In this document: piece after piece, positions 6,160 to 34,044 of the stretch
Layout of the letters: every line of letters starts with the position of its first letter
How positions within the stretch are numbered: the stretch's first letter is position 1
Assembly: GCA_963924565.1 (NCBI GenBank)
Contig: OZ004611.1
Location: 29,760,001-29,824,000, forward strand
DNA length: 64,000 nucleotides
Direction of reading: 5' to 3'
Source of the DNA: Ascidiella aspersa
Lineage: Eukaryota
Position numbers and translations under genes: made by a program
The notes under the pieces: generated by a model
What the model saw: only the letters and a program-made list of their open reading frames with translations
The model's database searches: none
Told to the model about the DNA's origin: nothing

Positions 6160-6490
6160 TTGGTTTTAAGCTTATCTTTTTTCCCAAATTGCATTTGATA
6201 GTTTGCCAGAAGTTCCGGAAAGGAAAAATCTTCAACGGCCGCCACCTTTGTTGCAATCTTCTTCCATTAACATTTTGGCTTCGTCGGGAATTTCGGTTTC
6301 TTCGACGCCTTTAGGTAGGTAACAGGACTCCGACCCAGCATGGTGAACAGCCCATGACGGTGTGGGCAGTTCGAATTGCCCCTCTCGGTTTGCCATATGT
6401 CTATTTTTTGTTGTCGTGAAGGCCCCTGAAGCCGTCGTCTTGCTTTTGCCTAAGTTTTCTGAAAAGGAGTTATCCAACGGATTAGGTAAC
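6160..6490 (-). pseudogene. Endogenous ssDNA-virus Rep fragment B (heavily deleted)
   Basis: Remnants NCPHRHGLFTM, EETEIPDEAK, DFSFPELLA, QFGKKDKLK and upstream PNPLD, homologous to the other copies. Confidence 0.75.
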
Positions 6491-6620
6491 TACATGAATT
6501 GACGACTCCATCTTTTCGTTGCTTGTTGCCAAACATGGCGCACAGTGAAATAACTGCAAAAACAAAACGACTTTCTGCGACGACAGCACATGGATTTTAT
6601 ACGATCGTAAATTTCTTTGA

Positions 6621-6881
6621 ACTGGTACCAGTCACAGCTCATTTGCATATTTATAATTTGTTTTTTTCATTCAAAGACACTATGGCACTGTAGTGCCATA
6701 GTACCGTCATCTCATTATCATATTAATTATTTTTTTTATTTTTATTAGTTCGGAGGGTCAAGCGAACTCCTCAATAGCCCCTCTGGTACTGGTACTGACA
6801 CTTTTATTAGTGTTCCTTTTTGTAGCACTAGAATTTTTAGTACCACTTTTATTACTAACCCAAAGTGTCAGTACCAGTACC
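6621..6881. promoter_or_regulatory. Hairpin/octamer region downstream of Rep A (candidate viral origin/intergenic region)
   Basis: CTCATTTGCATATT 6638-6651; perfect hairpin 6679-6702; CTCATTATCATATT 6711-6724; 20-bp inverted repeat 6785-6804/6862-6881. Homologous to 25233-25390. Confidence 0.55.
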
Positions 6882-6911
6882 CGCAATAAAACAACATACA
6901 CAATTACAATA

Positions 6912-8615
6912 TTATTCGGCCATTGCTTCTTCTAGTAAGTTGACAAACTGGAAGTCTTCCCTTGTGAGACTATGTTCTTCTTCTTGTTGGCACATACACT
7001 GAGCGTTTCGACCATTATGCTCGCATTTGCGCCCATCTACAATTACAATTTTATACCGGATTCGGCCATTGCCTCCAACAAATTTACAAATTGGAAGTCT
7101 TCTTCCGTTAGTGTTTTTTCTTCTTCATCCATTCTTTTTTCTTGTGCACATGTGCATTGTGCGCACATGTGCGTCCATCGTCATAGAGGTCTTCTAGTGA
7201 AGGTTCATCCGCGAAGCCCGTGGCAATCTCTACACGTGATGTCTTCGCGGATGGCTCTTCTACTTCTTCCTGGCTTGAAGGGCATGATCTTTTACTGCCT
7301 CTTGAGCTGCAGCTGCTTTGTGTGCTTTCTGGTTGCTCTTCGTCGCTGTCGTCTTCTGCTATTAAATGTGCGACGTTTCGGACATATTCCGCAATTTGCA
7401 CCAATGATGGCTGGACGGCCATTTCCCTTTATTCCAGCTTGTGCACTATTTCTGTTGTTAGTTGCATTAGTACTTCGTCCGTTAGGTCGCTTGTTATTCG
7501 TTTCTGATTGCCTAATTCCGGTGTCGTGCTGTCGTGGGTCCATTCAGCCGTGACGAATCTGCGCCGCATTGGCGCCATTTCCTCGAGGCCCGCCATTTTA
7601 TAAAGTGGATTTGCCGCGTTGGTGGTGACAAATGCGCATGTCGCCTCGTTGTCCTGGTGGGTCTTTGCACTCCATGCGTTGTGGTGCATGAATTTTACGG
7701 CGGCCAGCAGGGCGTCGTTATTAAAGAACGCGTTCCCGGCGTCATCCACTTTCAATACTTTATGGCGGAACCTCAAAGCCATTTGGCCAAGCCAACGCCT
7801 TGCGAGTCGTTGGTTAGAATTGACGCGTATTCCACGGGGAAGAACCATTTTCCCAGGAACGTCTTCCCTTTTCCTGCGATGCCGTGGAGCATAATGTGGG
7901 GCGTGTATTCTATGCCCCCTGCCTGTACCAGGATTAGTAGCAGCTCATCAGTCGTCAGCTGATCGCCGTTATATTCCACGTTTTTGGCTTGTTTGATTAT
8001 GTTGTAGATTGCCTCTTTCGCTTCATTGGTTTTCCATATTGGCACTTGGTGTTTGGCTAGTTTCTTTAATACTCTTTTCAACTTATTCTTCTTTTTCCCA
8101 AATGTTACCTGATTGTATGCCCGTTTTGCTAGCAGTTCGGGAAATGAGAAGTCGCGTTCGAACAGGGCGCTCTTTGTATAGGTTCATTGAGGGTTTTGTA
8201 TCGAACTCCTTGGCGACCTCTTCGGCTATTTTTTGCCACTGCCCTTTTACTGCGCCTAGGCCCTTCTTCATCCATTCCTTTGCCTCTTCTGGTATGTCGA
8301 CCTCTTCGGCGTGTTTGTATACATAGGCAACCCATGCCGCTTGGTCCTTGACCGCTGCCACGTACGTCAAGGTAAATCCTATTTTTTTCAGCTCTTCCGC
8401 CACTCTTCTTTGTTATGGCCGCCAGCTGATGACCCGCCCCCCGACTCTTCATGGTGAACAGCCCATGATAGTGTGGGCAGTTGCTGTTCCCCTTTTCCAT
8501 GGGGCCGACATAGATCGTGTACCTGTCCGTTTGCGTTATTCCAGGTTTTCCATTCACTGCCGTGAAGGCCCACTTTCGGCCTCTAGTTTTTTCCGGTCTC
8601 TTCCGTCCCATTCAT
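6912..8615 (-). pseudogene. rep: Endogenous ssDNA-virus Rep A (HUH endonuclease + SF3 helicase), near full length, frameshifted
   Basis: RCR motif I WAFT, II PHYHG, III YVYK; Walker A GIAGKGKT, Walker B KVDD, motif C FVTTN, Arg finger MRRRF; acidic C-terminal tail. Assembled from ORFs 8129-8611, 8083-8403, 7773-8081, 7429-7848 and 7108-7422. Confidence 0.9.
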
Positions 8616-8683
8616 TATTATATAGTGTTATCAAGTCTTCTGTCAACCTATTTATCCTTAAAGTTCTCTGTAAAGCAGTACCG
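8083..8683 (-). pseudogene. Overprinted ORF-X (-1 frame) overlapping the Rep nuclease domain
   Basis: TALQRTLRINRLTEDLITLYNNE upstream of the Rep ATG aligns with ORF 22010-22378. After correcting the Rep frameshifts, the -1 frame has no stop until 8083 (WEKEE*). Confidence 0.65.
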
Positions 8684-8709
8684 TTTTTCTAAATTTGTAA
8701 AACTGTACA

Positions 8710-11300
8710 GTCGACCTAAGTGTTCAAATTTATTTTGGTTTGGCTGTTTGTTTAGTTAGTTACACCAAAAATACAGTTGTTTGTCCAATAGTACAATTAT
8801 TTGTGAAAGTGACCAATATAGTTAATTTGATACATGTCGAGAATATTTAGATTCAATACAACCAGGAATTGGAAATTGTCTAAGTCTAATTTTAGATTGC
8901 CAACTGTCTCCTTAGTCTAATTATTGTGGCAACTGTCGAGTCGGTCGATATTAAATTAATAATAATTCTGGGAAACAATGCCTAAATTGACGAACAAAGG
9001 GTTCGCAACGGTCCAATAATCCAACACAGTCAAGGAAGATAAACAAAAATTCCAAATTTGTTAAGTACAAATTCGCTGAAGGTTGGTGGTCACTTGCCAA
9101 CTGTTAAAATAACCGATAAGAAAATTACAGGTAAGTGATGTTCCTAATTGTCCAATAAAAATAGATAGGGTTTAATCAAATGTTATAATTGTGTATTATG
9201 TGAGTTAACAGAGACAAATTCCAAGCAAACTGTTGTTATGGTTTCAACTTGTGTTTGTTAAATAGCGCTATTACCAAGGAAGCAAGAGACAGCCTTCCAG
9301 ATATTTCAAATGTGAAACCTGTCCAAATCAACCAACCAATTAAATATTCCAATAGAGGCGGTATTACCCAGGTCCAATAATTTGAATGACAAAGTTTGAG
9401 TTGTCAGAGACCAGCAGCAATCAATTTTAACAATCAACACCAAGGTTCAACAATCCAAAGACAAACTTATTACGATAATTCAAGTGGGCCAACCAATCTA
9501 TTGGTTTAGGGACTGGATGTTTAAACTGTCCGAATTATTTAGTAAGGTTATTAGCTGTGGAGTACCTATTTTCAAAGTGTGAACGAACCAAATATACTTA
9601 GATCCGAAACTCTAACAGATTAGGATTGTCCAATTTCAGAAATCTATTCCAATTATGGGGCACCTAGATTCAACGATTGGAAGGTCAAAGGCTAAGTTAG
9701 ACCGACAATTTAAATATTCCTAAAGCTGATTATTTCAACTTTTGAGTTTGTTGAGTAGAATTGCGAAATGTGAGAATCACCAATCTTCAATTTATAAATT
9801 ATTACTGTTATCTAGGTCCAATAATCTGTGTGTTAAGGGAATAAAATTGTTCAGGACTAAGACTGTATTGAGTTCCAACAAATGTAACACCAAAGTTCAA
9901 TCCGAAACCAAAAGTTGAAATTGACCAAGTAGATGAGTTGAGTCCAATTAACAATAACTGAATCTTCAGATTGTCAAAGTTAAATTATTAGCAAAGGTAG
10001 ATTGTTTAAAATTAGTCAACTGTTGAATGTTTAAATTGTGAAGTATCGAACGTACTTAGGACCAATAGTCTAAGTGTTAGGCTGAATCCCCACCGGTTAG
10101 ACAAAAACGCTTTAAAGCAGTCTGATCGCGACTAATGAGATGGAACGCTATTTCTTTTGTTGTCGCGTCTCCACCGACCAGACTTGACGCAAATCTTACG
10201 CACAGCAGACAGACACGACTAAACGCGTTTTTAGCGAGATAGCGCGTGCACTACTTTTTTACCGTGTCTGAAGATGCTTTTTGATAGAAACCATTAGTTT
10301 TTTATGGGTTTTTGTAGGTTTTATATCAGGAATGTTATTTTGAAAGGTTAAGCAGGTAATTTATTTTAATTCCAATAAAAATATATTCCTGGAACGGTCA
10401 AAAAGCCTTTTAATTCGTATCTTTATTTTCCATGTATGATTTTACCAGCTTGACTCGTTCAAAAAACAATTTTGAAGACACCCTTGCGTAATTTTGAAAC
10501 TTATCTACATGTTTTAATAAAGTGCGAAAAAGTACATAGAAAGAAACCTCTTTATACCTTTTTTCACAAATGGGGTGTATCCACTACTTGTGCTGTCGTA
10601 TAAACTTCTGGTTACGTTTCCAAATACATATTCCTGCCAAAATTTACATTTTATTTGCCTCCGCTATGATCACAACTGAATTATATCGCCTAGCTTTGAC
10701 CAGTTCAATTTTCGCGCGCTTTGTTGGTGGGGATTGGACAGTCGCTGTCAGGCACGACGCGACAAGTCAACAGTCAGACATGTTTCGTCGCGTCGTGTCT
10801 GAGGTCCGGTGGGGATCCAGCCTTAGAGGTTTAAATTAACCAGGACTAATATCCAATTCGAATTAAAGAAACACCCAATTTACAATCTAAACCCGAACGT
10901 TGAAACTGTCCAAATTGGTTAATTAATAGCAATTATAGGTAAGCTGAATGTTAAGGTAGACTGTTGAATTCTTAAATTGACTGATAGCAATATAGACCAG
11001 ATCCGGATCCAATTATCGACGGTAAAAATTGCCTAATTCTAGAAATTGTATAACGCAAGTTTGATAATATCCAAATACTGTAATTTTATTCTCCAATTGT
11101 TCAATCTGCCAAAATTTCCAATACTCCCAGTACGATCAATAGTTGGAGTTTAATGTAGTGGTCTGAATTCGAAATCGTCAGGAATAAAATTACCGGAAAT
11201 TACGCTTGCTCGAGTCCAATTCTCCTAGTAACCAAGTGATGAAATTAACCGGAAAAACAGTCCAAAAGCCAATTTTAACCAGATCCAGAAATCCCAATAT
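8710..11300 (+). repeat. Degenerate repeat region enriched in strand-specific GTCCAAT/YCCAA motifs
   Basis: GTCCAAT/GACCAAT at e.g. 8783, 8811, 9011, 9150, 9372, 9628, 9816, 9942, 10060 and 11213. Longer diverged repeats lie ~450 bp apart. No ORFs outside the inserted MITE. Confidence 0.5.
10080..10822. mobile_element. PIF/Harbinger-type MITE
   Basis: TIR GGCTGAATCCCCACCGG / CCGGTGGGGATCCAGCC with TTA TSD on both sides. Second copy at 47686. Confidence 0.85.
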
Positions 11301-11349
11301 AACTGCGTTGAACCTCGTTTAAGTGGCGATCTAATGCCACAAAAAACGG

Positions 11350-11600
11350 CACCGGCCGGACAAGACCTGGAGGCTCTATTAGCCTAAAGGCCGCAAAAGC
11401 CAGGTGCAGGCAACAACAACAGACTCCAATTGGCTCAGACCAGACAAGGCTCTATTAGCCAAAGGCCGCAAATCCAGTGTAGGCAACAGTAACAGACTTT
11501 AATATGCACCGGTCAGACAACACCCAAGGCTCTATAAGCCAAAGGCCACGAAAACCGGGCAAACAACAACAGACAGTAAGACCAAGACCAGCCGGTGCAC
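11350..11600. repeat. Three ~76-80 bp diverged tandem units
   Basis: GGCTCTATWAGCC(T)AAAGGCC...GGCAACAACAACAGAC-like units at 11372, 11448 and 11528. Confidence 0.8.
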
Positions 11601-12169
11601 AAACAAGGCAACAGGAGCAAGTCAGACCAGGGTTACTTGAAATGACCAGCCACTAAAAAACAGACTTGGGCTGAAATTTAACCAGGCCAAAACTAGCTGA
11701 GGCAAAAACCAGACCAAGGCAGACTTGAGGAAGTAAACTAAGTGAAACAGAAGCTAACTTGAACGGACCACAAACGAAACAAACTGAGGACTTGAACCGA
11801 AACAACGGAAGCTGACTTGTTGCGAACCACTAATGAAAAGCAGATTCTGAGTGAACAAGATGCCCAAAAACTATGTTATCGCTTGTTGCAAAACAACGTG
11901 GTCACAGCTTTAAAGATTGGGGTTAGTCAGGAAGAGGTACAACTCTCAGACTTACCCAAGACTTGCTGGTTGGCCGTGGAAAGATTTGGCAAGCGAAAAC
12001 GTATTTTGCCGTCTCTCGAAAATAGTGCATTTGGAAGCGATTTTCGACAAAACGACACGACGAATTACAATTGGGAAAGAATTGAAAAGAGAATTTGGCC
12101 GTCGGACTCTCGTTTTAGCTGGCCTTTGATTTCTGGCCAGGAGTTATTGAAATTTCTAAGTTGATTTTA

Positions 12170-13596
12170 TATTATGCTTGAATTAAGGTAGTCAGTCCAA
12201 AATTTGTTTTGAAAGAGTTTTTTTGGTCTTAATGTGCTAAAGAGAGATTGTTTAATTTGTTTTGTCTTGAAGCCTAGTTGATATATATAAACCAGACGTG
12301 GAAGAATTGGTTCGGATTTTCGATGTTTTTAATATATTTAATTCTTTCGAGATTTGCGGCGATGATTTTGGTAGAGATCTGGGACATAGACATGTTTAGT
12401 TTGGTTCGTTTTATGGTTTCGAAGTATTCTGGGTACCAAAGGAAGTTGTATATAATTTTATTAAGTTTTTTGATGGTAAAATTACTGGGAATAGATTGAC
12501 GTGCGATTTGAATAATTTTACCTATAATGTTTGCGTTAATTAGGTGAATTTTTCCTAACATGGTTAAATACGGATTATCAAATTTATTTTTAATGGCCTG
12601 AATTTTCTTTTCAACGTAATTCCAGTTATGGTATTCTGTTTGGTTCGATTCGTTGTAAAAGATTCCTAATATTTTGACTGTTTTTTTGATATATTCTGGG
12701 TAGATAGGGGCTATTTCTTGTTTTAGTCCGTTGTGTGTAATTAAAATTTCTGTTTTTGATATGTTTATGGTTTGGCCATTTGATAGGAAAAACGAGTTAT
12801 CGTCGGCATACTGCTGTAGACGGATGTTTATATTGTTAAAGGTAATGCCTCTAAGTTTTTTTGTATTTTTTATTTTCCTCGACAGAGTTTCCCCAATGAG
12901 GACGAATAAAAGCATGCTCAAGGAGCAGCAGCCCTGCTGGACTCCTCGCTTGATGTGGATTGCGGAGGTATGTGTACCCATTTTATAATTGATTTCGGGA
13001 CGTGCATTTTTTCTAATATTTTAAACATTAATTTATGATCAACCATGTCAAAGGCTTTTTGGAAGTCTGTTAGAATTATCGCAAGTGGTGTGTTTTTTTC
13101 TTTACTGTATTCGATGACAGAATTAATGTTATAGTGAAATCATTTGGCGTTGTGGGAGGCCGCATTTTTGAGTTAACGAAATTTCATTTTCTAGTAATTT
13201 GGTTAGTCGAGATGTTACGATTTTACTTAATATTTTATAATCTGTGTTCAATAGGGAAATCGGTCGCCAATTTTTTGAATATATGTGTTGTCGCATTTTT
13301 TTGGGATAAGTTTGGTAATTGCTAGTCGTCGCATTGAGGGGGTCATTTGGTTTTGAAAGTATATGTTGTTTAGTAGCTCGTGTAGGGGATGTTTTATTGT
13401 GTGCCAGAAAGTTAGGTAAAATTCTACAGGTAAGCCGTCTGATCCAGGTGATGAGCAGAGGTTCATAGATTCTATGACAGTTTTGAGGTTGTGTTGGTCA
13501 GGGTTTATGTCAATTTTATCAATATATTTTAAAAGTTTTTCTTGTTTTGATTCATTGATTATGTTGGGTTGTCCCCACAGATTGTTGTAGAAGTTT
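12170..13596 (-). mobile_element. L1/Tx1-clade LINE ORF2, RT part (degraded)
   Basis: NFYNNLW, SPGSDGLPVEFYLTFW, TDFQKAFDMV, RGVQQG..LSMLLF, QYADD, KILGI. Confidence 0.9.
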
Positions 13597-13605
13597 CGCA
13601 CGCGC

Positions 13606-16600
13606 TTGATTTGCTCGATCGGCAATGAGGCTGTTCTCAAGGCACTTTTCAAAATTAAGGCTGATGAGCTCAGTTTTGCGCGAGCCATCGAAGTTTCCAT
13701 TCAAACGGAGGATGCTGCTAAAGTTGCGAAGGAAACTGTATATGGAAACCGAGGCTCTGTTCAAAAGGTACGCGAAGCAGCGAAGCCAAGTCCGTCTCCG
13801 TATACTAAAGTTTCAAAGGACGCCGCAAGTTATGCTTCGAGGGACAGTAAAGCCAAGACGAACATGTGTTGCTATCGCTGTGGCAAGTCTGGACATTTTG
13901 CTTCCACATGTCGTCACCGAAGTTCAACTTGCAAGTTTTGCAGACGTATCGGTCATTTGGAAGTAGCTTGTCGAAAGAAACTGGCGTCAACAAAACCTTT
14001 AAGCATGGTTCATACGGTGAAGCCTATTTCAAGCATTGGGAGGTCAACTCCGAAGCTGGACGTCAATATTTACGTTTTAGACAAGATTTGTTGCTTGGAG
14101 CTTGATACTGCTACTACCGGAAACTTCTTATCTGTTGATACATGGAAGCGAATTGGCAGTCCATCGCTGGAGACGCCTACTTACCGTTTCAATTCGGCGA
14201 CAGAACATTCAGTGCCACTAATCGGTATTTTTCAGGCAGAAGCAGCATATGACGAAACCAAGTGTACGCTAGAGTTCCACGTATCTAAGATACCGAACCT
14301 TGATTTACTTGGGAGAAATGCTATTCAGTCTCTAAAAATATCAGTGGACAAATTGATATTTACCGATGTTGTTCCCGTACGTGCTTTATCTGTCGATACT
14401 CCACCTGATATTCAGTTACAAACGGATTGCCGGAAACTTTGCAGTCAATTTCCGGACCTGTTCAAAGAAGAGTTAGGTTGTCTAAAGGACTTTGAATTAG
14501 AGGTACAATTCAAATCCGCGACGAAGCCGGTGTTTTGTAAAGCTCGCTCAGTTCCGTTTGCTCTTCAGCAAGACGTGGGACAAGCATATGATGTTGGCAT
14601 CACTAAAGGAATCTGGACTCCAGCGAAGTTCAACGACTGGGGTACGCCTGTGGTACCCATACGCAAAACTCCGCTTCCAGGGAAATCCAAAGGTCGATTG
14701 CGCGTGTGTGGTGACTATTCCGTGACGGTAAACCCGCAACTGGCCACGCACCGCCACCCTTTGCCGCTTCCAGAAGATTTGTTACGCAAGTTGCAAGGTG
14801 GATATGGCTTCACGAAAATCGACTTGGCTGATGCCTACAATCAGATACGTCTCGGACCAGAAAGCCGAAAAAGGTTGGCTCTTAGCACACATCGTGGAGT
14901 TCTTCTGCAAAATGTTTTACCTTTCGGTATACACTCCGCTCCAGGGTATTTTCAGGAAATAATGGATGACCTTACAAAAGACCTTCCAGGAGTTGCTGTC
15001 TACTTGGATGATCTTTTAGTCAGTGGTTCGTGTGCAGAGGAACATCTTCGTAATCTTCGTCAAGTTTTCCAACGGTTGCATGACAAAGGACTTCGCTGCC
15101 GATTGGAGAAATGTGTGTTCGCGCAACCCAAAGTGGAATACTTAGGGCATACACTGTTTAAAAGTGGAATTGCAAAAGGTTCCAAGCTTGATGCGGTATT
15201 GAATATGTCACCTCCGAAGAATGCAACAACTCTACGTTCATTCTTGGGGTCCGTTCAATTTTATGGAAAGTTTCTGCCGACCAACTTTGCCGAAGTGGCA
15301 GAACCTTTATATCAACTTACCCGGTCTAACATTTCGTGGAAATGGGGAGCGGTTCAACAAAAATCTTTCGATCAGTTAAAAGCATGGCTTTCGGAAGATA
15401 ATGTTTTAACTCACTTCAATTCATCGCTTCCGATCGGAATTGCATGTGATGCTTCAAGTGTTGGAATTGGCGCTGTTTTATTTCACCGTTATCCTGACGG
15501 TACTGAAAGGCCGATATCTAATGCTTCAAAGACGCTTTCAACCAGTCAGCGCAACTATAGTCAAATACAAAAGGAAGCTCTTTCTATTATTTTCGCGCTG
15601 AAAAAGTTTTACCAGTACTTGTTCGGGAGGAAATTTATTCTTGTCACCGACCACAAACCGTTACTGGCACTATTCGGGCCAAGCAAGCCTACTCCGGCAC
15701 TTGCGGCAAATCGACTCGCAAGATGGGCACTTTTTCTCAGTCAATTTAACTATGACATTGAGTATAGAAAGACGTCAGAACACGGCAATGCTGACGCACT
15801 TAGTCGTTTACCTGGAGGTAAAGATGAGGAGTTCGACGGAGAGGAGAGTGTAGATGACGTGGACACCGTTTGCTCCATCACTACATTAAGCTTACAAGTG
15901 AAGCCCGCCGATAGCGCCACCCTCCAGAAGGAAACCAAAGTGGATTCTGTCTTATCGCGTGTTGTGCGATTTACAAGGGAAGGCTGGCCACCTAAATGCA
16001 ATCAAAGTGCTGATGATGACGCGGAGAAGTTTCGGAAAATATCCGATTCGTTAAGTACTTGCCATGGATGTTTGCTCTATGGATCGCGAATTGTAATTCC
16101 GCTCAGACTTCGACCCCAAGTCTTGCAGCTATTGCACCAGGGACATTTCGGTGTTCAGCGCATGAAGCAACTGGCACGAACCGCCGTATACTGGCCAAAT
16201 ATTGATGCAGAGATATTGTCATTGTGTCAGCGTTGTACTACTTGTGCACAGCATCAGAACGCACCAACCAAAGCAGTCATTCATCCGTGGATGATGCCAG
16301 AGAAGCCGTGGAGCAGAATTCACATTGATCATGCAGTGAATTTTATGGGCTACAATTGGCTGGTGGTAATCGACGCATACTCTAAGTATCCGTGCATTCA
16401 CCGAACGCAATCCATGTCAACCAAAACTACTATGGAATTTCTAGAACAGGATTTTGCGCATTTCGGGTACCCGCACACTATTGTCTCGGATAATGCTCAA
16501 GCATTTCTTTCGGCAGAATTTCAAGAGTTCTGCAAACAAAGGGGAATTATACATTTAACAGGTGCTCCTTATCACCCTGCTACAAACGGTGCTGCCGAGA

Positions 16601-22075: not shown

Positions 22076-22099
22076 GTAATTTACGGTTAGCTTCTTCCG

Positions 22100-22378
22100 C
22101 CACGCGGCTGACTGACGACCCTCCCCCGGACTCTTCATCGTGAATAAGCCATGACGGTGTGGGCAGTTTGGGTAATCCCCGACTTGCCACAGGCCCATTT
22201 GCGGTCTCTGAAGTTCTTGCCGGTCTCTTCCACGCCGTTCGTATTCATTTTGGTATAGTATTATTAGGTCTTCAACTAACCTATTAGTTCTACAGGTTTT
22301 CTGAAACACAGTATCAAGCGGGTTAGGTTTGATATAGTTAGCTGCTATATTTCTGATAACTTCAATACTCGGGTACAT
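22100..22378 (-). pseudogene. ORF-X start (ATG 22378) and Rep 5' fragment C (ATG 22248)
   Basis: MYPSIE..PNPLDTVFQKTCRTNRLVEDLIILYQNE; Rep frame MNTNGVEETGKNFRDRKWA and NCPHRHGLFTMKS. Confidence 0.8.
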
Positions 22379-22384
22379 TTTCTC

Positions 22385-23473
22385 TTAATGAATATTTATT
22401 AGTTTCAACGAACATATATACACACAAATTGACACTGGTACTGGCACTACAAGGTTTGCACCACGTCCGAATGTAATGTCCAGTTCTATTGTATATGGAA
22501 TGCAGATGAAGTTGTCGACTTTGTCTGAGTATCCCGAGGCCGTCGGTAGGTACGTCGCTGATCTTTTTAGGTTCTTCTTGATGGACTGGTCGTATACATG
22601 CATTTGAGTGACGAGTGCTCTGCATGCTGGCGGTTGTGCTGTTGCTACCTCCCACCACGGTGTTTCGAAGTAGTGCGTCACTGTTTTGTTTGTTGAGTGT
22701 GTTGCATATGGTGTGTGTATCTGCCTGCAGGAATTCTAGTGGTATTGTTGTGACGCTCTCTCCCAGTTGATATCTTTGACAGTTGTTGTGTATTCTTCCA
22801 CTGGAAATTCTGAGTATTGTCCCGAGTTGTTTTGGAATCCGTAGTCGAATTTGTTGTCGGTGTGGAATCCATGACGTTGTGTTGCCACGTCCATCAGCAT
22901 GATTGGCATGTTTCGTGCGTTGTCGTCGTGGTCGTTAATGCTGCTGCTGGCCATAGGTTGACCTTCCAGTTTGAGAACTTAATCATTGTGAACTTTTGTG
23001 CTAGCGATTTTACTCCTGCCGTATTGATTGCGTCTGAGTAGCCGTTTGGACCGTATACTCTCCATCTTCTTCCGATGTTGTTTCCTTTGTCCTCTACCAT
23101 TGCGTTCATTTGTCGACTGATTACAGCACTATGGACTATCATCGTTGATGCTTCTGTTGTGTTTCCATCCACCCATGTTTTCCACGCCTTGAATGTTCGT
23201 TCCTCTTGCGTCTGATGCCCCCTTTTGATAGAACCACCATGTTCCCTTTGCCATTGCCTTAAATTTGCATGTTTGTTGCACTGGGTGCATCCTTGGTACT
23301 GGTACTGTTGGTCCTCTCTTGACCCAGCCCCAGATTCTGTTGTAGCAGCCGGCGACAGTCTTGCGCTCGATGGATAGCATTCATAGGGCTGTTTCCTGGT
23401 ATGCTGGCGGGGGTTGCAGCTGTAGTAGTTGTAGTTCTTGTGCTGTTTTCTTTGCCTTTTTTGCAGGGGGCAT
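22385..23473 (-). pseudogene. cap: Putative single-jelly-roll capsid of the endogenous ssDNA virus (stops/frameshifts)
   Basis: Starts MPPAKKAKK (NLS-like). LAQKFTMIKFSNWKVNLWP, THYFETP and IPYTIELDITFGR resemble circovirus capsid strands (FEYYRIRKVKVEFWP, SRYFTP, YNIRVTMYVQFR). Ends 6 nt before ORF-X. Confidence 0.65.
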
Positions 23474-24199
23474 GTGAGGTAGTAGTGCTTGTTTTTAGCT
23501 TTAACCCCACGTACGAAATAACCTTCGATAGGTGAAAATTTATTTCAAGAAAAAGGCAATCCTGCTAATTTAACTGAAGTAAATCTTTTGGGCCTACAGC
23601 AGGAGACTATTGACCAAACTATTAATGTAAAGTTAAATTTCGAATTTTCCTGTTGTAATGGAACTGTTACCTTAAAGTTTACAGCTGTGATGTCATTATG
23701 ACGTCATATGCTCGTCTAATCGTTTTTATTTAATTGACTTTTTTGTTTGTTTGAACTTTACCTTTTATATAAGACTAATCTCAAGGTGTTTGGACTAATA
23801 TGAAATTTCAGCCTATATTGACATGCGTATGGTTTTGACGTCATTATGACGTGTTAGACACTAAATTTTTCCGGGGACTTTTTTTTGGGAATTTCCGGGA
23901 CCTTTCCTGATATGATTCAGCAAAAAAACCTTCTGTTGCAATTAGTTGTAGGTTTGAGCCTTTTTTCACCTAGATTTACTACTGGCCTATACGCGCACCT
24001 TCTTCAGTCACTTTTTGATTCCTTACCGAATACATATCCCTCCAAAAAGGGGTGCTTTTCCCTCTTCATTAGCATTGTCCAACTTCCAATCGCCAGGCGC
24101 TTCATTAATAACCACTTCCTGCACGTTCAAGGGCACTCACCTGGGAGTTCGCCGGTTTTTTTCCGGCTTTGGTAGACGCGACGGCCCTGCGAAGCTCAT

Positions 24200-24545: not shown

Positions 24546-25154
24546 TGGCCCACTTTGATCAGGGGCTGGGACTTCTGGTCAAGCCGCCCGTCAGATTTCT
24601 AAAAGTTTGTAAGTTTGTTTTGCCATAATCAACAGAAAGGGCGTGTACGCTTTAAAAGGCTGCGCTTGGCTACCTAAATCTAATCAAACATTTCTCTCTA
24701 TCTCCCGCCGAGAGTCGTTAGCCCGATTTTCGCCGTTTACTCGAGCTTGGTTGAATTTCTTCACTTTGAAATTCAGAGCATCCGAGTTCCTGGCACTGCT
24801 GCCCGGAAAGCAGTGACTTGCTGTCATCGTTATATAACAGCACATGCATTTTATACGATCGTTAATTGTACCGAAGTTCTTTATAGTGCATAAAGTCACA
24901 AGTCTGTTCTGCGCAATCTCAACTCCGTTTGAAACACATTGTGTGTATATTATCACACAGAAATATAAAAATAAATATATAACAAAGCACAAGGTGACAA
25001 TTTTGTTTGGTGTGTGAGTGAAAAATATCGTATTTTTTTTTATTTTCAAGCAATCCTTAAATGTGTAGTAGCCACATTAAAGTTAACAAAAAAATAAAAA
25101 TAGTAGTTAGAAGTTCTAGTTTTTTAACTAGCATTGTAATCACACTGTTGTGTT

Positions 25155-25337
25155 GAGTTCATTTAACCCAGTGAACTACAAAAAAGAAAAAAGAAAAAAT
25201 TTCTTTTAATAAAAAAAAAAATTATAAATATGCACTACTGTAATTTATAGTGGTGACAGCTCATTTGCATATTTATAATTTTTTTTTTCATTGAAAAATT
25301 TTTTTTCTTTTTTTAGTTCGCTGGGTTAAAGGAACTC
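25155..25337. promoter_or_regulatory. Long imperfect fold-back hairpin with inner stem-loop and octamer, downstream of Rep D
   Basis: Arms 25155-25234/25266-25337; inner stem 25233-25255; CTCATTTGCATATT 25260-25273. Confidence 0.6.
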
Positions 25338-25472
25338 CTAGTATGAATTAGTACCAATTTTTACATTAACCTTTAGTACCAGTACTAGTACCAAACACAT
25401 AATACAACGATATATACAATACAATACAGTAACTCAAAGTTCTATCCCCGCTTCTTTCATGAGCGTCTATAC

Positions 25473-25729: not shown

Positions 25730-25744
25730 GTCTATATATACCCT

Positions 25745-26315
25745 TATGTTCGAATTTCATCAGTGATGTCACTGGTTATTCTTTTTTGCTTTCCCATACT
25801 TGGTGTTGTTGACTCGGTCGTCCATTCAGCCTGCACGAACTACGTTTTATTGGCTGAATATATCCTTCAGTGCCGCCATTTTGATATTCGGATTCTTGCT
25901 ATTTGTTGTGACAAAGGCTAGCGTTACAATCATTATGGTGCATGAACTTTAGGGCGGCCAGCAGGGCATCGTTATTAAAAAAGCTGGGTCCAGCGTCATC
26001 CACTTTTAGAACTTTGTGTCGAAAGCGTAGCGCCATCTGGCCAACCCCTTGAGAATCTTGGTCATAACAGGGTCTTCCCCACGTAAGAGAATATGTTGAG
26101 CATATTGAATTCCACCTTCTTCCGCTCTAGCTTCCAATCCTGCTTCTATTAAGATTAGCATTAATTCATCCGTTGTGAGGTACGAGTCGTCGAATGTAAT
26201 ATTCTTGGCTTCTTTTACTATGTCGTATATTGCTTTTTTGGCGGCCTCTACTGTCCACGTTTTCTGAGTATTTTTCTAAGTGCTGACTTTAATTTTGTTT
26301 TTCTTCTTCCCATAT
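25745..26315 (-). pseudogene. Endogenous Rep fragment D (helicase half)
   Basis: QYGKKKNK, AIYDIVKEAKN, LTTDELMLIL, SQGVGQMALRFRHKVLKVDDAG, FVTTN, KRITSDITDE. Confidence 0.85.
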
Positions 26316-28556
26316 TGCAGAGGTAGCAGCATTGTTACACATAAAATATATTTATTTTTTAAAAACCAAAAAATTTTGTAAGCTAAACAGTAAAAATGGA
26401 GCCAATTTTAAAGAATTTGGCGTTAAAAAAGCCAATCTGACAATCCTGGTCTATTTACCTCTGGTATTACAGTTGGTTTGAAACTAAATGTGAACCAATT
26501 GCAGTTCTGTAAGGTGCAAGCTCCAGCCTGGTGTCACCTAGTGTTAAGGTTGTAAGTGGGGTATTATTACTCTAGTCAGCAAAGCCAATTAGTGTATATT
26601 CCTGTGTTTATTTTTTATCTATCAAAGTTCCTTGCAAGTTTTTAGAAATATTTATATAATATATATAGATGAAAACACTTAATTCGTACAACGAATCGCG
26701 TCAAGCTATAGTCATATTAAGTGATAATACGATGACATCTGTTTGATAAGCCAGCGTCGTGTTATTCATAGCGTGCCGAACCGCATCTTCCGTGTTGCTT
26801 GTAAATATGCGAAGATTTCCTGTTTATTGTGACTCATAGACGACCGCGCGGTAACTAAAGCCTGTTTGTTTGCCACGTCAAGCAGTGAACAGAAGTCTTT
26901 GTTGTGCATTATTGTTTGGTTGCAGGCCCCTATACTGTTTCTACTAGCTTGTGTCACAAGTCTAGTTTTTAGCAAGCCGCGGTTTTTACTGCAGAATTCT
27001 AAATATGTATTTATAAGATTCAGGCCGTCTAGTTCTCGGTGGAGAGTCAGTCCACCGGTGTTAGTTATGCCCCTTTAAATACAATTTGACCTAGCATGTT
27101 TCTAACTAAGTACCAAAATGTTTTTTCTCTCTACATCACCCACAGGTTTGTGTGAGCAAGCAAAAAATGGCTGAGATTTCGCAGGCAAGCGATGAAGTCG
27201 ATCAAAATACTTAAGATGTTGATTTGGTGAGACTCCTTACCAAGAATAAATTCGTTTGTGGATTGTTTTTGCTAACAATTATTGATCAACAATATATACA
27301 ACACTCGGCTAAAATTTGCTACTTTTAGGTACATTTGAATTAATAGGAAAAAGGGCGCTGCACCTTGTTGGGATTAGGGTGGTATATGACCCACCCCACC
27401 CAAACATTGTGCATTGTTTGTGGTAGGATTCTAGACCAGCGCCGGAAAAAGTGTTAAGAATGCTAGTGCATTTGTTTTTAATGAAGTTTGAAGATTAATC
27501 TTTACCAGAAATTTTACGGTCGAGTTACCCGCATTTTGGTTGGTATTTTGCAAGGATCAGCCAAGCCAACCGCCTACGTTATCACGCGATTCAAGACCCC
27601 GTCAATATTTTTATTGTTACCAATAAGTTATATTTCCGCTAGGTTTTAATGATTACAATTGTCTAATTTTTTAAATTAACAGAACCACACAACCGTTCAA
27701 AGCCTTTGCGTTGGTGCTCAAGTTCATCAACAAATCACCCATGAGACCAAACAGTTTCACACTCACGAGACTCACGAGCATCATCATGTGCAGCATAACA
27801 TACAATCTGAAAACTTACATGTCGATGTTCACTATTATCTTCAACAAGGCAACGTCAAAAGAGATGACATTACTGAAGAAGGTCGGTGGAATTTTTATTT
27901 TTACAAACACCGTTGGATTTAAAAAAATTATTGAAAAAAAATGTTAAACGTTTTAAATAAATAAATATAAAGTTAAGATTTGACAAATTAAACTAAAAAT
28001 CTCAACAACCTGGATCGTGGAAAAGTTTTATTCACTCTACTGCTGTAGTGTGTGTAATGTCCAGATTTGCTTAGTTACTGGGCTTGATGATACCTCAGAC
28101 TAAATTTATTTTTTCTGCAGCTATAAAATAATACCGTTTTGGGGGGCAGCGTTTTATTAAATGTTTACGATTAGTAAGTTGTGCTTAATACAGGTTTTTA
28201 TTTAGAGCAACTAAGTGAATAATTATTGGCATATAAAATGGTGATATTGATATGCTGAATCTGTTTAAATAAATATCTGCTCAAGGGATAACATTCGCAC
28301 ATAAACTTAAAACTAACCGCATTAGTTCATTTTTTTAGTATTTAATCTCGTACATAAATAAATTGTGCTTTAAAAGATTCAATGTCTGATGATATTTCGC
28401 TGGAAATTATAAAGGAAGATCTCAAGAGACCGCAGAAAGAAGTTGTTTCACTCGGGCTAAATTACGACCAGGACAGCTTTCCCCGTGTTCATCCAGTTCT
28501 AAGAAAAGAGGAAAACTTTTATCGGGGTTCAACCGGTAAAACCAAAAACTACAAGC

Positions 28557-28744
28557 CTTCTCCACACAACAAAGGTACGAAGATTCCGACTCAAATGACC
28601 TCAGTTTTGAGCAGTGGCATACTTCTGTCGTCCCAAATTGCTACACAGCCCTTCTCCACACAACAAAGGTACGAAGATTCCGACTCAAATGACCTCAGTT
28701 TTGAGCAGTGGCATACTTCTGTCGTCCCAAATTGCTACACAGCC
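28557..28744. repeat. Perfect 94-bp tandem duplication in the NACHT exon
   Basis: 28557-28650 = 28651-28744. Confidence 0.95.
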
Positions 28745-30202
28745 TTAGTCGGGTCTCCTGGTTCTGGGAAATCAACCATTGCCAGACGACTATCAAACAC
28801 CTCTTGTATAACCTGGATTATTCTGTTGTGCATGAACATTAGTTATGGGTCAGAAAAAGTCACTCGGCAGGTTGTGGTTGATCATGCGGATCCGTGGTTA
28901 AGCGAAAGAAAACGAAACGCCATATTTGCAGCAATGGTTAAATTCCCAGGAAAATTTGGGATTAACTTGGTCACTTGATAATGTAAATCTTATGATACTG
29001 CCATGTTAGTTGAAGAGGTAGTTGCAAATTTATGCACCGGAAAGTTCTTTCCAGGCATTTCTATAGTTTTGACTTCCAGACAGACCACATTCTATAGTCA
29101 CTCTCCATGAATTACTTCGCCCTAAGGAAATTGTTTTGGTACACGAGTTTACACCAGACAACATGAAAACACTATTCTTTGCGTTCGCTCAAAATGAAGC
29201 CCAAAGAATATGGGAAAGCTTTACCAAACTTGCACCCATGTTGCTTGAGCTTTTGTCTTATCCCAGTTATGCTTCAACTGATCCTATTGGCTGCTTTGAG
29301 CACAGATAATCTTACCGAACTTTGTAACATCACCAACATTTTTACAGTTTTAGTTGAAAACCTGAGACGTTCAGGACATGCCAAGGGTTGTGACATTAAT
29401 TCAATCAAAATGAAACTTACCAAAATTGCCTACAACGCTACAAACAAGGGTACTGTCATTATGACTTTTCCACAAATGGCTAAGGAGGGTTTAAGTGATG
29501 TCATAGTTCAAGATATTATAATCGCAGTACCTGGGTATTCTTACTTTAACCAGAAACTTTTTGTCGGTTCCCATCAGCTGTTTCAGGAGTTTTTTGCTGC
29601 TCTCCATAATTAGCCAGCACACGAGTTTCAATGAGTTTAGTAAGATAGTGATTAAATTGGTCGCCGATTCTCACTGGGCGATGGTTAGAAGATTCGAATG
29701 TGGTCTTTTACTCGGAAACAACTTCACGATTTCCCAATCGGGTGAATGCTCCAGCGATGAGGAGTCAACAGAAAGCAAAACGATAAAAGCAGGTGTGTTT
29801 GTCATCATTTTTGCTTTTACATCTCACGTAGTGTTTACAACCCGCGTTTCTCAAACGATGTTTGGGTTTAGTGACTTGACCCAGAGTAATTGATTGTCTG
29901 ATTAGACAGGTCATTTTTTAAGCTATTAATAAAACCTTCTTTGCATGTTGTGTTATTTCAGTAACCCTAACGATGGAATCTGATGTTTACCAGTAAAATA
30001 TTACCTAAATATTTACAGATTTGCGTGCAAGGTTCTCTTCTTCGTGTGGATTATAAATAACTAGCGGATCTCTAGAAATTCACGAGATTTTACCTTTCTT
30101 TGCACATTTGTGCAGAGCTTTGACCTTCATAGGACGTTTGTTAAAGGTTAGCCTACCTGTTTCATAACTTAACAGTATACCTTGCCAGGTCGCTAAATTA
30201 TT

Positions 30203-30580
30203 GACTCCAGCCATAAGACCGAGACAAGAACAACATCAACGTCAGAATAAAACACAAATAGGAATGAGGCAAAAATAGGACCAATTATACCTAATGGTGT
30301 ATTAGTACCGTCTAAATCAGAATAAGTCCTAAATCCTTCGGAATAAGACCTAAAAAGTCAGAATCAGGCCTAAACAACACTTTAACTAAAGGGCCGGTGC
30401 CAGACCGATGGCCCGCGATCGTCCCACACTCTACCCACATGTTCGGGGGTTATTTTGGTCATTTAGGCCTTCTTCCGATTGATTATGCTGTACTAAAAAT
30501 CACTGCGTATTTGGCTGTATTATGCCGTTGGTATTGTTGCTTTTTGAGTGTTCCCCTGCACAACACATTTGCTTGCCTAA
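30203..30580. mobile_element. Copy of the GGACTCCAGCCATAAG repeat, in an NLR intron
   Basis: Homologous to 3231-3880. Confidence 0.7.
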
Positions 30581-32714
30581 TTTGCCCCTTATGTTTGTAA
30601 AATATTGATTTCTCTATACATTCCAGACAAGGCTGAGATGTTATCCAAACACTTACTCGAGCAATTCAAACGAAAGCCCATTGGTAAGAAGTATATTTTA
30701 TTAAATGATTCTGTGGAATTGATAAACCCTTAAAAAAATATTTTTTGTTTTGTTGAGCAGTGTTTTTGTTTAATTGCCGCCGATACGTGAACACTTATCT
30801 AAAAATGTTGGGAACCAGTGCATTAAACCGACCATTTTAACAATTCACGTTAGTGTCAATGTGCAATATTTAATAGTAGATATAAAATTGTGTTTAGACA
30901 TTGCAATTATTGCTGACTTGCAAGAATGCAAAGAAGAAGAAGTGCTCCAATCCTTCGCAAAGCACTTCCCTGTTGAAGCTGATTTTAGACGTCAACGCCA
31001 ACCCATCGGAGCAAGTGGCTTTCAACACGCCTTGGGACGGATGCTCCAGCATGTCGACAAATCAATCAATAAATTGAATCTGTCGGGCTGCAATCTGACA
31101 AGTCAAGGCTTGGAACACATTTGCGAAGAAATTGGAAAAATAAAGCTTTTTATGAATTTTATGTAGACTGTACATTACAGGAAATACTCTGTTTATGCGT
31201 GCCATAATTTTATTGCCATACTAACAACTAACATTAACATAAGTAGGTGTTATGGTTTTCATATTGCTAGGGAAATACATTCACAAATTTCTCAATAGTG
31301 CTTGTGCCTAAGCAAAATAAATCCCTTGAAAAATGAAGAGCCGCAGGTTGGCCACTGATTTTATATCAACTTAGCTTTAATTAAAAAATGTTTAACTCAA
31401 TGAACCAGAAGTCATACAGTTCCATTAAACTACAAACAAAAAACGAACCACCAGAACAGTTAAAAAACATTCTCCGTTGTCCCACACTTGTGCCTAAAAG
31501 AATAAATCCCAAAAATGTTTAACTGGATGAAGAGATCCACAAGAACTACTGTTCTAGATCAACCAATGCAACATTAAACATCCTTAACGCAATACCCTAA
31601 AAGTAATATTTATTAAACAATATACTAAAACTAACGAAAAAGTTGAAATGATTATATAATGCGCATTGTTAGTAATATATTAAATTTAGTTTTTTTAAAA
31701 GCAGGCCTAAGGTATTTGTGAAAACCGTGACCAGCATAATATTTTTCGATAATGTTCAAACGTTCAACTTAGCAATAAAAATATAACCCTGGTTAGAATT
31801 CAACAAAAAAGATAATGTTCAATTCTGTGCGGCCTTTTAAAAAATGTGAATCTGTCATAAGACTAATTTTTTGGTTCGGAGCTGTTGGATATTCTTGTAA
31901 TAGAGCGATTTTAGTAACAATGAAACGAAGAATAAACTCGCCGAAATTATTATGTTCGTACGGCGCTCCTTACAAAAATGACTGGAAAACAATTCTTCGC
32001 ATCAAATTAATTTCAACAGAGCAATTAAGAAATATGTGACCAACTACCAACGATATGTTTCTGTGAATTAGTTGAAGAGGCTTGACCTCAGCTTCAACCA
32101 CGAAATCCAAAACACCGGAGTCAAAAGTTGGTCAAGGATGTTTCAAAAGCTGGAAAAGTTGGTGTTGGTCAGTTGTGACCTCAGAGACATCAGTCCACTT
32201 ACCGAAGCCATCAAGAATAAAGATTGCAAAGTACCTTTGTTAAGGTTTTTTCTCAATAAGTAGGATAAACAGCTAAACAACCTAGTGATGAAATTTGAAA
32301 CAAATCTGGTAAATTGATTAAAATAAATAATTATTATAATACATTTTTGCTACTGCACCATCGAAAATTTGCGATAGTTATTGCAGTGTTCTGAAACAAT
32401 CGCTTTTTGTAATGGTCAAAATTATTGTTCTGTAATAAAATCATTGAAAAAGCTTCACATTGAAAGCAACACCGGTATCCAAAACTCTGGAATAAAAAGT
32501 TGGAGGTGTATCACCGACATCAGTCTACCAACGCCATCGGGAATAACGATTGTAACGTAAGATTGTTTTTAAAGTTGGTTTCTTAAAATTCAGTTCAAGG
32601 TACATCAGCGTCAAAAGGAATTAAAATTGATCCATAATTTTACAGGAAGATTTTCCTTAATATTTAGAAGTAAGATATTGAAACAAAATTTTAATTTATC
32701 TATTTGTATTTTTT

Positions 32715-34044
32715 GTTACCGCTGGTGTTGCCTCCTCCTCTTCTTGACTTGAAGGGCATGATCTTTTACTTGGTCGTTGATTGACTACTCTTCGGTTGCT
32801 CCTCTCGCTGTTGTCCTCTTGCAGTAGGTAACCTACATTGCGCACGTATTCCGCGATTTGTATCAACGATGGTTAGACCGCCATTTTTCTTTCTTCTAGC
32901 TTCTCCACGATTTCCATCGTCATTTCCGTAATATTCATCGGTCAGATCGCTTGTGATCCTTTTTTGATTCCCCAATTGTGGCGTAGCGCTGTCGTGGGTC
33001 CATTCGGCTGTCACAAACCTTCTTCGCATTGGCGCCATTTTGTGTAGTGAATTTGGCGCATTAGTTGTTGTTATAAAGGCGCACGTGGCCTCGTTATCCT
33101 GCCGGTCGCCGTGAGTTTTGGCGCTCCACGCATTGTGGTGCATAAACTTCACGGCGGCCAGCAGGGCGTCGTTATTAAAGAACGCACTTCCCGCATCATC
33201 GACTTTTAGGACCTTGTGTCGAAACCTTAGGGCCATCTGCCCCACGCCTTGAGAGTCGTTGGTGAGTATGGGACGCGTATACATACTCCACTGGGAAAAA
33301 GAATTTCCCTAGGAACGTTTTCCCCTTGCCCGCTACTCCGTGCAACATTATATGTGATTCAATTCCTCCCGCTGCACTTCTCCAGTCCTGCTTGAATTAG
33401 GACTAGAAGTAGTAGCTCGTCCGTTGTTAGGCTGTCTCTCCATGCCTCTTTTACCACGTTGTAGATGGCCTCCTTTGCTTCCTGTAGTTTCCACAGTGGG
33501 ACTTGTCAATTTCTTTAATACCCTCTTTAGCTTATTCTTCTTCTTCCCAAACTGGACTTGATTGTAGGCCCGTTTGGCGAGGAGTTCTGAAAAGGAGAAA
33601 TCTCTTTCGAATAGCCGTTCTTTGTATAGGTTCATCGACGGTTTGGTGTCGAATTCGCTCGCCACTTCTTCTGCAATTTTCTGCCACTTTCTGCCATTGT
33701 CCTTTGGCGCCCCCCACAAGCCTTTTTTGATGGTATGTCTGCTTCTTCTGCGTGCTTGTAAATGTATGCTACCCAAGCGGTTTGATCCTTTTAAACGTAA
33801 ACCCTAGCTTTTCTAACTCGTCTGATACTCGTTTCTTCGTCATGGCTGCCAGCTGTTTTCCCGCCCCCCAGACTCTTCATTGTGAATAATCCATGACGAT
33901 GGGGGCAGTTCGACCCTCCCTTCTCTAGGGGCCCTACATAAATGGTGTAGCGTTCCGTCTGGGTAATTCCAGCTTTTCCATTGATTGCCGTGAGGCCCAC
34001 TTTCTCCCTCTGAAGTTCTTGCTTGTCTCTTCGCAACCGTTCAT
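32715..34044 (-). pseudogene. rep: Endogenous Rep E, near full length, frameshifted
   Basis: MNGCEETSKNFRGRKWA(F)T, PHRHG, YIYK, GVAGKGKT, KVDD, ITTTN, MRRRF, KRSCPSSQEE. Confidence 0.9.

Follow-up and report, generated by a model that had tools for sequence, protein, structure and literature searches.

Germline remnants of a putatively new, capsid-first ssDNA virus lineage in the genome of Ascidiella aspersa

The genome of Ascidiella aspersa carries germline remnants of what is probably an undescribed ssDNA virus of about 4.1 kb, with the capsid gene ahead of the replication gene (Rep) and a likely linear genome replicated by a rolling-hairpin mechanism. In the better-preserved copies, the ~4.1-kb unit consists of an eared left hairpin, a capsid gene with a phospholipase A2 (PLA2) domain, an overprinted ORF X, Rep, and a different right hairpin. 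The window analysed here, a stretch of 64,000 nucleotides (assembly GCA_963924565.1, contig OZ004611.1, positions 29,760,001 to 29,824,000), contains six viral remnants, five of them inside 6160-34044 and a sixth, overlooked by the first-pass annotation, outside that range at 40.3-40.6 kb. The features are as follows.

6164..6406, minus strand: copy E, two short fragments of Rep, one from the motif II region and one from the mid-region, 67-79% identical to copies A, B, and D
6640..6900, minus strand: copy A, 3' end with inner stem-loop, small stem-loop, and one right-hairpin arm (copy A overall, 8680-6640)
6915..8680, minus strand: copy A, Rep interrupted by frameshifts and stops, together with the 3' part of ORF X
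22091..22239, minus strand: copy D, truncated N-terminal Rep remnant with motifs I-II
22166..22381, minus strand: copy D, ORF X, 3' of a stem-loop and a TATA-like element
22466..23519, minus strand: copy D, broken capsid gene, 80% identical to locus L040 over 1629 nt
23516..23992, no strand assigned: unrelated, non-viral dispersed host repeat, matched many times across 7 contigs at 71-91% identity
25154..25340, minus strand: copy C, A/T-rich palindrome of ~187 nt at the right end, with both arms present and one octamer
25750..26312, minus strand: copy C, broken helicase half of Rep
32727..34065, minus strand: copy B, broken Rep from its start to beyond the helicase, both genome ends missing
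40346..40596, minus strand: copy F, short and more diverged remnant of the Rep mid-region (E 4e-5)

The first-pass annotation had described five Rep copies with RCR motifs I-III and SF3 motifs. Five remnants on the minus strand are indeed present, but only A and B of the window copies hold both the nuclease and the helicase motifs, and the identical peptide ascribed to the copies is found in three of the five (A, B, and C), as D and E are short N-terminal pieces without that region. The Rep of copy A carries nuclease motifs I-III, the SF3 Walker A, B, and C motifs, and an acidic tail. Its 3' end combines an inner stem-loop built of strain-specific repeats, a conserved small stem-loop (6747-6768) that is a candidate origin, and the single right-hairpin arm, which is followed by a 45-nt piece resembling the hairpin arm of copy C. 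Sequencing run X9 covers copy A at single-copy depth, and runs X1 and X2 yield contig pieces that match it exactly; runs X3, X4, and X6 gave only short pieces at low depth. RNA run X10 covers copy A thinly, with a depth of up to ~12 at 80% likeness, many differing reads, and an uncalibrated library strand. Copy E was also considered as a duplicate of the C-D block, a reading that was dropped because its Rep piece is no nearer to D than it is to A or B.

Copy D preserves the co-oriented order capsid, ORF X, Rep, the extent of which we refined to 23519-22091. Of 16 regions taken from the genome (two pairs of which overlap), 10 have the capsid gene ahead of Rep in the same orientation, the other six gave no capsid match, and none is ambisense, in agreement with the unisense layout proposed previously. 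The order persists in relatives that are only ~30% identical. A set of 25 metagenome loci, drawn from a small number of lineages and probably of samples as well, has Reps that either match the query relative at 30-37% identity or are almost the same as it; 16 of these loci have an upstream capsid gene (13 by profile, three by aligning the upstream ORF). ORF X starts ~50 codons ahead of Rep and overprints its 5' part. It is open in all three copies tested, compared to none of 2000 synonymous shuffles for each, so this sequence-based test indicates that the overprinted ORF is real; four-fold sites show no extra conservation in the X/Rep overlap (0.67-0.76 vs. 0.57-0.64).

The capsid gene of copy D lacks its 5' end, so the PLA2 domain is hidden in the window. 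This domain is found at six other places in the genome. The parvoviral PLA2 family PF08398 is matched in all three unbroken capsid ORFs (E 4e-12 to 3e-11), with a bufavirus-type parvovirus VP1 as the best PDB sequence match (E 4e-11), and PLA2 was detected in five of six distant capsid ORFs scanned. The ORF encodes 474 aa, with PLA2 first, then an NLS-like basic segment and a linker rich in Gly. The remaining core of ~290 aa gave only chance or P-loop matches in PDB sequence searches and none to solved capsids, its structure model has a pLDDT of 26, too low to show a fold such as the single jelly roll of T=1 parvoviral capsids, and its neighbours in feature space are ssDNA-virus capsids from several families. 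The earlier designation as a circovirus-like capsid thus has no specific support, as the ORF is PLA2-first and the Circo_capsid Pfam profile has no match in the capsid ORFs.

With ~550 codons, Rep is about as long as first reported. Its helicase has a DD Walker B motif and an RRF arginine finger, which we take to be CRESS-like; DD is present in 20 and EE in 3 of 29 aligned family members. For structural comparison, a relative was modelled (P0001, 45% identical over 345 aa, pLDDT 79.8). Residues 12-122 align best with compact nucleases, namely pMV158 RepB (Z 8.8, rmsd 2.6, 100 aligned), nanovirus M-Rep (Z 8.5, rmsd 1.9, 80 aligned), and circovirus Reps (Z 7.8-7.9), and no parvoviral nuclease domain is among the 50 structural matches listed. 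Residues 194-424 resemble papillomavirus E1 (Z 12.3, rmsd 3.6, 183 aligned), AAV2 Rep40 (Z 11.9, rmsd 3.6, 183 aligned), and B19V NS1 (Z 10.5, rmsd 3.9, 181 aligned) more than PCV2 Rep (Z 8.0, rmsd 3.2, 126 aligned). A further match of this helical SF3 module is the phage primase-helicase NrS-1 (Z 11.1), so the module is not specific to parvoviruses. The 50 best BFVD matches, all 10-15% identical, comprise 14 parvoviral, 15 CRESS-type, one papillomavirus, and 20 unnamed proteins, and language-model features place Rep toward CRESS and plasmid Reps. Rep is thus predicted to combine a compact HUH nuclease (~110 aa, CRESS/plasmid type) with an SF3 helicase that has parvovirus/papillomavirus-type flanking helices. 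In the predicted structure, the initial label of a CRESS-type Rep fits the nuclease but not the helicase module, for which circovirus Rep is a poorer match than papillomavirus E1 or AAV Rep.

These features invite the question of whether the virus is a highly divergent true parvovirus, either a new subfamily or a sister family within Piccovirales, in which the two gene cassettes have been swapped. Such a virus would use the same mechanism as the one we favour and differs from it in placement only. A size of ~4 kb, unlike hairpins at the two ends, a VP1u-like PLA2, an NS2-like overprinted ORF, a helicase fold near AAV Rep and B19V NS1, and a best BFVD match labelled parvoviral all agree with it. 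We nevertheless consider this placement unlikely: the ~110-aa nuclease has its best matches among CRESS and plasmid domains, the ~290-aa capsid core matches no solved capsid, and Walker B is DD as opposed to the EE given for parvoviruses in PMC9896142. Furthermore, Parvo_NS1 is absent from the 25 most frequent Pfam families listed for 29 family members, as is Viral_Rep; a Parvo_NS1 search of the genome found no match, with the control silent as well. A suspected relationship of the distant group P0062-P0064 to hepanhamaparvovirus NS1 was dropped, as no name supported the link.

The genome ends bear on linearity. The right hairpin of copy C (25340-25154) has a folding energy of -50.3 kcal/mol (z -13 vs. 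100 shuffles) and one exact octamer (25263-25270), which bears out the large hairpin described at first. The left palindromes (z ~-12) form a two-eared turn with two TGACGTCA sites, reminiscent of MVM, whose left hairpin is eared and has CRE sites. A palindrome is also present 3' of Rep in distant relatives. On the left side, the shared sequence ends 102-370 nt upstream of the capsid start in all six copies, with ends that are ragged between copies; the expected place of the left end of copy D is occupied by the host repeat. On the right side, it ends 230-284 nt beyond the reference point in all 10 ends. In all eight right ends from outside the window, the shared sequence breaks off at a common point, give or take a few bases, and three of these ends have a palindromic run-on of a few bases. 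We read this common stop point as the putative hairpin tip, which fits the expectation for a linear rolling-hairpin genome. Thus, the parvoviral trait of a linear 4-6 kb genome with palindromic termini has a counterpart in a ~4.1-kb unit with two terminal palindromes, as reconstructed from integrated copies only; neither free virus nor particles nor terminal reads were observed, none of the copies examined has both ends or an intact Rep, and we infer linearity from these copies.

Alternatively, the remnants could derive from a unisense CRESS virus with a circular genome and an acquired PLA2 domain, as the first-pass annotation's cressdnavirus would imply, with both hairpins in one intergenic region and the ends representing preferred break points. 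The compact nuclease and the CRESS-like motifs are compatible with such a genome, as is a nonanucleotide-like string, present near the common break in six of the 10 right ends and also in one left region out of six. However, this string sits in the stem rather than the loop and is missing from copies A and C. Metagenome locus L071 has capsid codons after Rep and a hairpin, but the junction lies mid-gene and lacks the 5' leader. A circle is decidedly improbable given the distinct hairpins at the two ends: among 10 right and six left flanks, no Rep end runs into the left hairpin or the capsid-side end, and what lies beyond the complete right hairpin of copy C is unrelated DNA.

Five contigs of the A. 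aspersa genome carry at least 31 helicase matches to the viral family, and the copies of this genome form one clade in the tree (12 rows, SH-aLRT 99), which was inferred by a quick method with long branches and without outside references and is used for this clade only. Copies A and B share 93% amino acid identity, although pS is 0.88 and pN 0.034 (99 codons). Of 91 helicase pairs, 67 are saturated at synonymous sites and the other 24 have a median dN/dS of 0.046, while capsid dN/dS ranges from 0.13 to 0.61 across 23 pairs. A conserved protein with mostly saturated synonymous sites indicates that diverged strains integrated separately. These sequence comparisons support the earlier proposal of independent integrations, with purifying selection acting between copies. 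A host transposon encoding Rep and a capsid-like protein and spreading inside the genome, in line with the mobile element that the first-pass annotation gave as an alternative, would account for the clustering of the at least 31 matches in repeat-rich regions, the sharp common right boundary, and the near-identical pair L051/L052 (pS 0.03), but is highly improbable: synonymous differences are saturated, in contrast to those left by neutral decay of a recent master, the left ends are ragged, the copies are distant in sequence except for L051/L052, and none of those examined has both ends.

The remnants likely represent a new ssDNA virus lineage at the family level, with the parvovirus-like traits, first listed as extras, at the core of its architecture. 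The literature searched contains no description of a capsid-first, hairpin-ended lineage, and none of 30 relatives looked up bears a viral name, consistent with the first suggestion of an undescribed ssDNA virus; one of them is an uncharacterised Styela clava gene. These were drawn from 64 matches (E<=0.001; 49 at <=1e-10) in a profile search of 1.84 billion proteins. Pfam scans of the window fragments gave no viral family, a word-index search with one Rep ORF gave no match and one with a wide alignment only six family members, PDB sequence searches with Rep returned chance or P-loop matches only, and neither IMG/VR scans nor PHROGs yielded a relative. The family escapes Pfam and word-based searches, although dozens of its relatives are present in public data.

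In the life cycle we propose, the capsid PLA2 would free the particle from the endosome, and the host would synthesise the second strand, primed from a terminal hairpin. Capsid and X/Rep may be transcribed from separate TATA-like promoters. Rep would bind at the strain-specific repeats, nick near the small stem-loop common to both ends, and unwind the DNA so that the hairpins are copied. Integration was likely accidental, with host repair opening a closed hairpin at its tip and joining it to chromosome breaks, after which the integrated copies would have decayed.

Parvoviruses are thought to have descended from circular Rep-encoding viruses, and to our knowledge few lineages are known between the two. 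The family described here unites hairpin ends, a PLA2 capsid, a Rep equally distant from CRESS and parvovirus groups, and a reversed parvovirus gene order. More speculatively, it may constitute a new family, possibly an order, of marine-invertebrate viruses with linear genomes and rolling-hairpin replication, capsid-first and with a CRESS-type nuclease joined to a parvovirus/papillomavirus-type helicase, that survives as an intermediate between Cressdnaviricota and Cossaviricota. We hold this placement tentatively; if true, the origin of parvoviruses would become testable. The germline copies also link the family to an animal host, a link that metagenomic ssDNA viruses usually lack, and may serve as a record of hairpin ends joining chromosomes.

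Compared to known systems, the lineage shares the following with Parvoviridae: a ~4 kb genome, left and right palindromes that differ, an N-terminal PLA2 with NLS-like stretch and Gly-rich linker, an overprinted ORF, and an SF3 helicase with flanking helices and a fold resembling AAV and B19V. It differs in having the capsid first and Rep second, whereas parvoviruses have NS left and VP right or are ambisense, and in its short CRESS-type nuclease, DD Walker B, lack of a Parvo_NS1 match among the families listed, ~290-aa capsid core, and structural-alignment identity of 10-12%. Oomyviridae have an ambisense layout, in contrast to the unisense one found here, and no Oomyviridae name occurs among the 30 of 64 family members looked up. 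Oomyviridae (Lineavirales; parvo-like hybrid virus, NIH-CQV) are alike in their linear ssDNA genome, CRESS-related Rep, and PLA2-containing capsid (PMC12451638, PMC13426907). Their proposed stramenopile hosts set them apart from the present family of animal germlines, which has copies in this genome and a gene model in Styela clava. Circoviridae, Nanoviridae, and pMV158-type Reps have the compact HUH nuclease with motifs I-III and the SF3 helicase with DD Walker B and RRF arginine finger in common with the present Rep, but belong to circular genomes with one stem-loop, and their helicase aligns only to model residues 242-377. Circular Cressdnaviricota have the nonanucleotide at the stem-loop apex rather than in the stem only, and Circoviridae encode an Arg-rich capsid of ~230 aa as opposed to the 474-aa PLA2-first ORF found here. 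The ~550-aa length of Rep is a further difference. Papillomaviruses and polyomaviruses are dsDNA circles with an inactive nuclease and share no further gene with the lineage, but their E1/large T group, at 13-15% identity, contains the best structural match to the helicase module, E1, which ties with AAV Rep40 (Z 12.3 for E1).

Taken as a whole, the virus remnants in the window are quite probably best explained as germline traces of an undescribed ssDNA virus with the order left hairpin-capsid-X-Rep-right hairpin, likely linear and replicating by a rolling-hairpin mechanism. The five Rep copies of the first-pass annotation were recovered on the minus strand by six-frame translation and self-comparison, and a sixth (copy F) lies beyond the range it had covered. 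Every remnant is broken, leaving no intact copy among the following features of the window:

8680-6640, minus strand, virus remnant, copy A
34065-32727, minus strand, virus remnant, copy B
26312-25750, minus strand, virus remnant, copy C
22239-22091, minus strand, virus remnant, copy D
6406-6164, minus strand, virus remnant, copy E
40596-40346, minus strand, virus remnant, copy F
12274-13700, 18149-18643 and 1436-1831, minus strand, broken pieces of non-LTR retrotransposons (E 1e-6 for the endonuclease domain, the rest weak or recognised by eye)
13591-17223, plus strand, unbroken 1210-codon Ty3/Gypsy-type pol frame with RT, RNase H and integrase
28358-31166, plus strand, weak NACHT/LRR-like remnant
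41762-42313, plus strand, GDSL-like ORF (E 4e-5)
49761-56429, plus strand, BACK/kelch gene exons
10077-10737 and 47683-48342, two copies of a 660-nt repeat (94% identity) that is high-copy in reads

The Rep peptide previously quoted as identical between copies is so in A, B and C and lies outside what is left of D and E. In a raw DNA run bearing the same species label, copy A is covered at the depth of single-copy sequence, and two contig sets include pieces that match it exactly or nearly so; it is therefore germline DNA and no assembly artefact. It is surrounded by retrotransposon remnants, the NACHT/LRR-like remnant and the kelch gene, which mark the host as an animal. Behind it (6583-6675), two short stretches are 93% identical to the copy C hairpin arm and its flank (24837-24867 and 25253-25296), in the same order. 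The Ty3/Gypsy-type frame has a depth >10x single copy and RNA reads. The non-LTR pieces share the minus strand with all six virus remnants, which might be what a one-strand piRNA cluster predicts.

The proposed unisense layout, with the capsid ahead of X and/or Rep on one strand, was found in 10 of the 16 fetched regions, the other six lacking a capsid match; the parts sum to a unit of ~4.1 kb. Unbroken capsid ORFs (~474 codons) start with a parvoviral PLA2; a basic motif comes next, then a Gly-rich linker and a ~290-aa core. Structure prediction gave no confident capsid fold, and the feature neighbours (0.91-0.94) are capsids of unclassified CRESS viruses, an IHHNV-like cluster, smacoviruses, circoviruses and parvoviruses. 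This spread over several ssDNA-virus groups supports the capsid identity of the “circovirus-like” Cap, yet points to no family. ORF X, the frame overprinting the 5' part of Rep, starts ~50 codons upstream of the Rep start and overlaps ~178 Rep codons. Its reality, already suggested, is upheld by an open frame in 3/3 copies tested vs. 12-14 stops expected (0/2000 shuffles open), and its 45 non-overlapping codons are 64-84% identical. Since four-fold sites in the X/Rep overlap showed no extra conservation, constraint on the distal part of X is weak. Rep is indeed long, at ~550 codons as judged from overlapping natural fragments (relatives, 538-658 aa).

The capsid is preceded by a ~150-nt palindrome that has two TGACGTCA sites and a two-eared turn. 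The palindrome that follows Rep is another one, rich in A/T, and window copy C alone has the whole of it. Both ends share one small stem-loop, in inverted orientation, and stem-loops of strain-specific repeats occur before the capsid, before X and after Rep, the first two with TATA-like elements behind them. About 30 nt upstream of the capsid start, 6/6 copies (L040, L041, L042, L044, L046 and L050 of the same genome) have a near-invariant TATA-like element together with an octamer-like motif and a perfect splice-donor string, AG|GTAAGT, which may permit spliced capsid or X/Rep messages.

Shared sequence ends at hairpins on the left and right alike, and no right flank among those compared runs on into left-end sequence. 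Outside the window, the positions at which 8/8 right ends break off agree to within a few bases, and in three of them a short palindromic run-on follows. This common position is taken to be the hairpin tip, because a closed hairpin end opened near its tip and joined by host repair would leave one arm and such a junction, as is established for AAV. A circular genome would accord better with the nonanucleotide-like string in 6/10 right ends, although located in the stem, and with metagenome locus L071, where the right hairpin is joined to mid-capsid codons; the hairpin-bounded ends favour a linear genome, as judged from integrated copies, with no free genome among the data examined.

Searches of the genome matched at least 31 of 35 candidates for the helicase (5 contigs), 9/9 for the capsid, 19/22 for the nuclease and 6/10 for PLA2, all lower bounds. 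Among 14 helicase fragments, synonymous sites are saturated in 67/91 pairs and the median dN/dS of the remaining 24 is 0.046; capsid values are 0.13-0.61 (23 pairs). Because of this saturation and low dN/dS, most copies probably acquired their differences while they were functional viruses, before separate integrations, in agreement with the earlier proposal of independent integrations of diverged strains under purifying selection. The pair L051/L052 (pS 0.03) is a recent duplicate. In a quick tree, own-genome copies form one clade inside the wider family. Several partial capsid-X-Rep units, arrayed in tandem and all on one strand, occupy G000 C5:33.06-33.08 Mb (L045, L046); the left palindrome of L046 is longer than the others and resembles a head-to-head junction. 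The Rep of L042 breaks off mid-helicase, directly followed by right-end sequence, resembling an internally deleted defective genome.

By sequence, the Rep motifs are CRESS-like, and its neighbours by language-model features are Reps of CRESS viruses and plasmids. The predicted structure of a relative (P0001), confident across residues 12-434, has a nuclease matching plasmid RepB, nanovirus and circovirus domains (Z 7.8-8.8), whereas its helicase module matches E1, AAV2 Rep40, phage NrS-1 and B19V NS1 over ~180 residues (Z 10.5-12.3); with PCV2 Rep the match covers just 126 (Z 8.0). The “CRESS-type” label thus suits the motifs and predicted nuclease but not the predicted helicase. The best Foldseek match in the PDB is full-length AAV2 Rep68 (E 1e-6), and among the BFVD matches listed, parvoviral and CRESS proteins are evenly mixed at 10-15% identity. 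Given these differing matches and low identities, the modelled Rep appears far from every family in the structure libraries searched and hybrid in build, through ancestry or recombination.

Word-based and Pfam searches missed the family, whereas a profile built from natural fragments and run against 1.84 billion proteins retrieved 64 at E<=0.001. Names were checked for 30 of these: 26 have none, three are annotated as “hypothetical protein” and the last is an uncharacterised gene of Styela clava. Contigs of 1.3-5 kb carry many of them. Among 25 metagenome loci, which represent few lineages, a same-strand upstream capsid was found in 13 by profile and in three more by alignable ORF, with no match in the other nine; several have a palindrome 3' of Rep. 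L062 has an overprinted ORF at the X position, a similarity perhaps imposed by the Rep frame, and its upstream ORF gave no PLA2 match. The L065-L085 sub-lineage has a long ORF overlapping Rep at its 3' end; past the hairpin, L070 and L074 contain pieces of Rep in inverted orientation. A more distant unnamed Rep group (P0062-P0064, P0078, P0085-P0087) has the same motif layout.

The window remnants are thus genuine, and likely represent a lineage of linear ssDNA viruses, undescribed and of family level, kept as repeated germline insertions. Comparison drew on portions of PMC12451638, PMC13426907, PMC5013282, PMC9896142, PMC11071296, PMC4419787 and PMC11945456; no capsid-first hairpin-ended virus was found described in the accessible text searched, which under-covers subscription journals and supplements. 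The contig sets of PMC11071296 could be a source of family members. The capsid-first virus falls outside the circular CRESS viruses on the tests for them. With Oomyviridae, as far as the portions consulted go, it has gene content in common but differs in host and in layout. It also departs from parvoviruses in gene order and helicase motifs, but probably works in a similar way.
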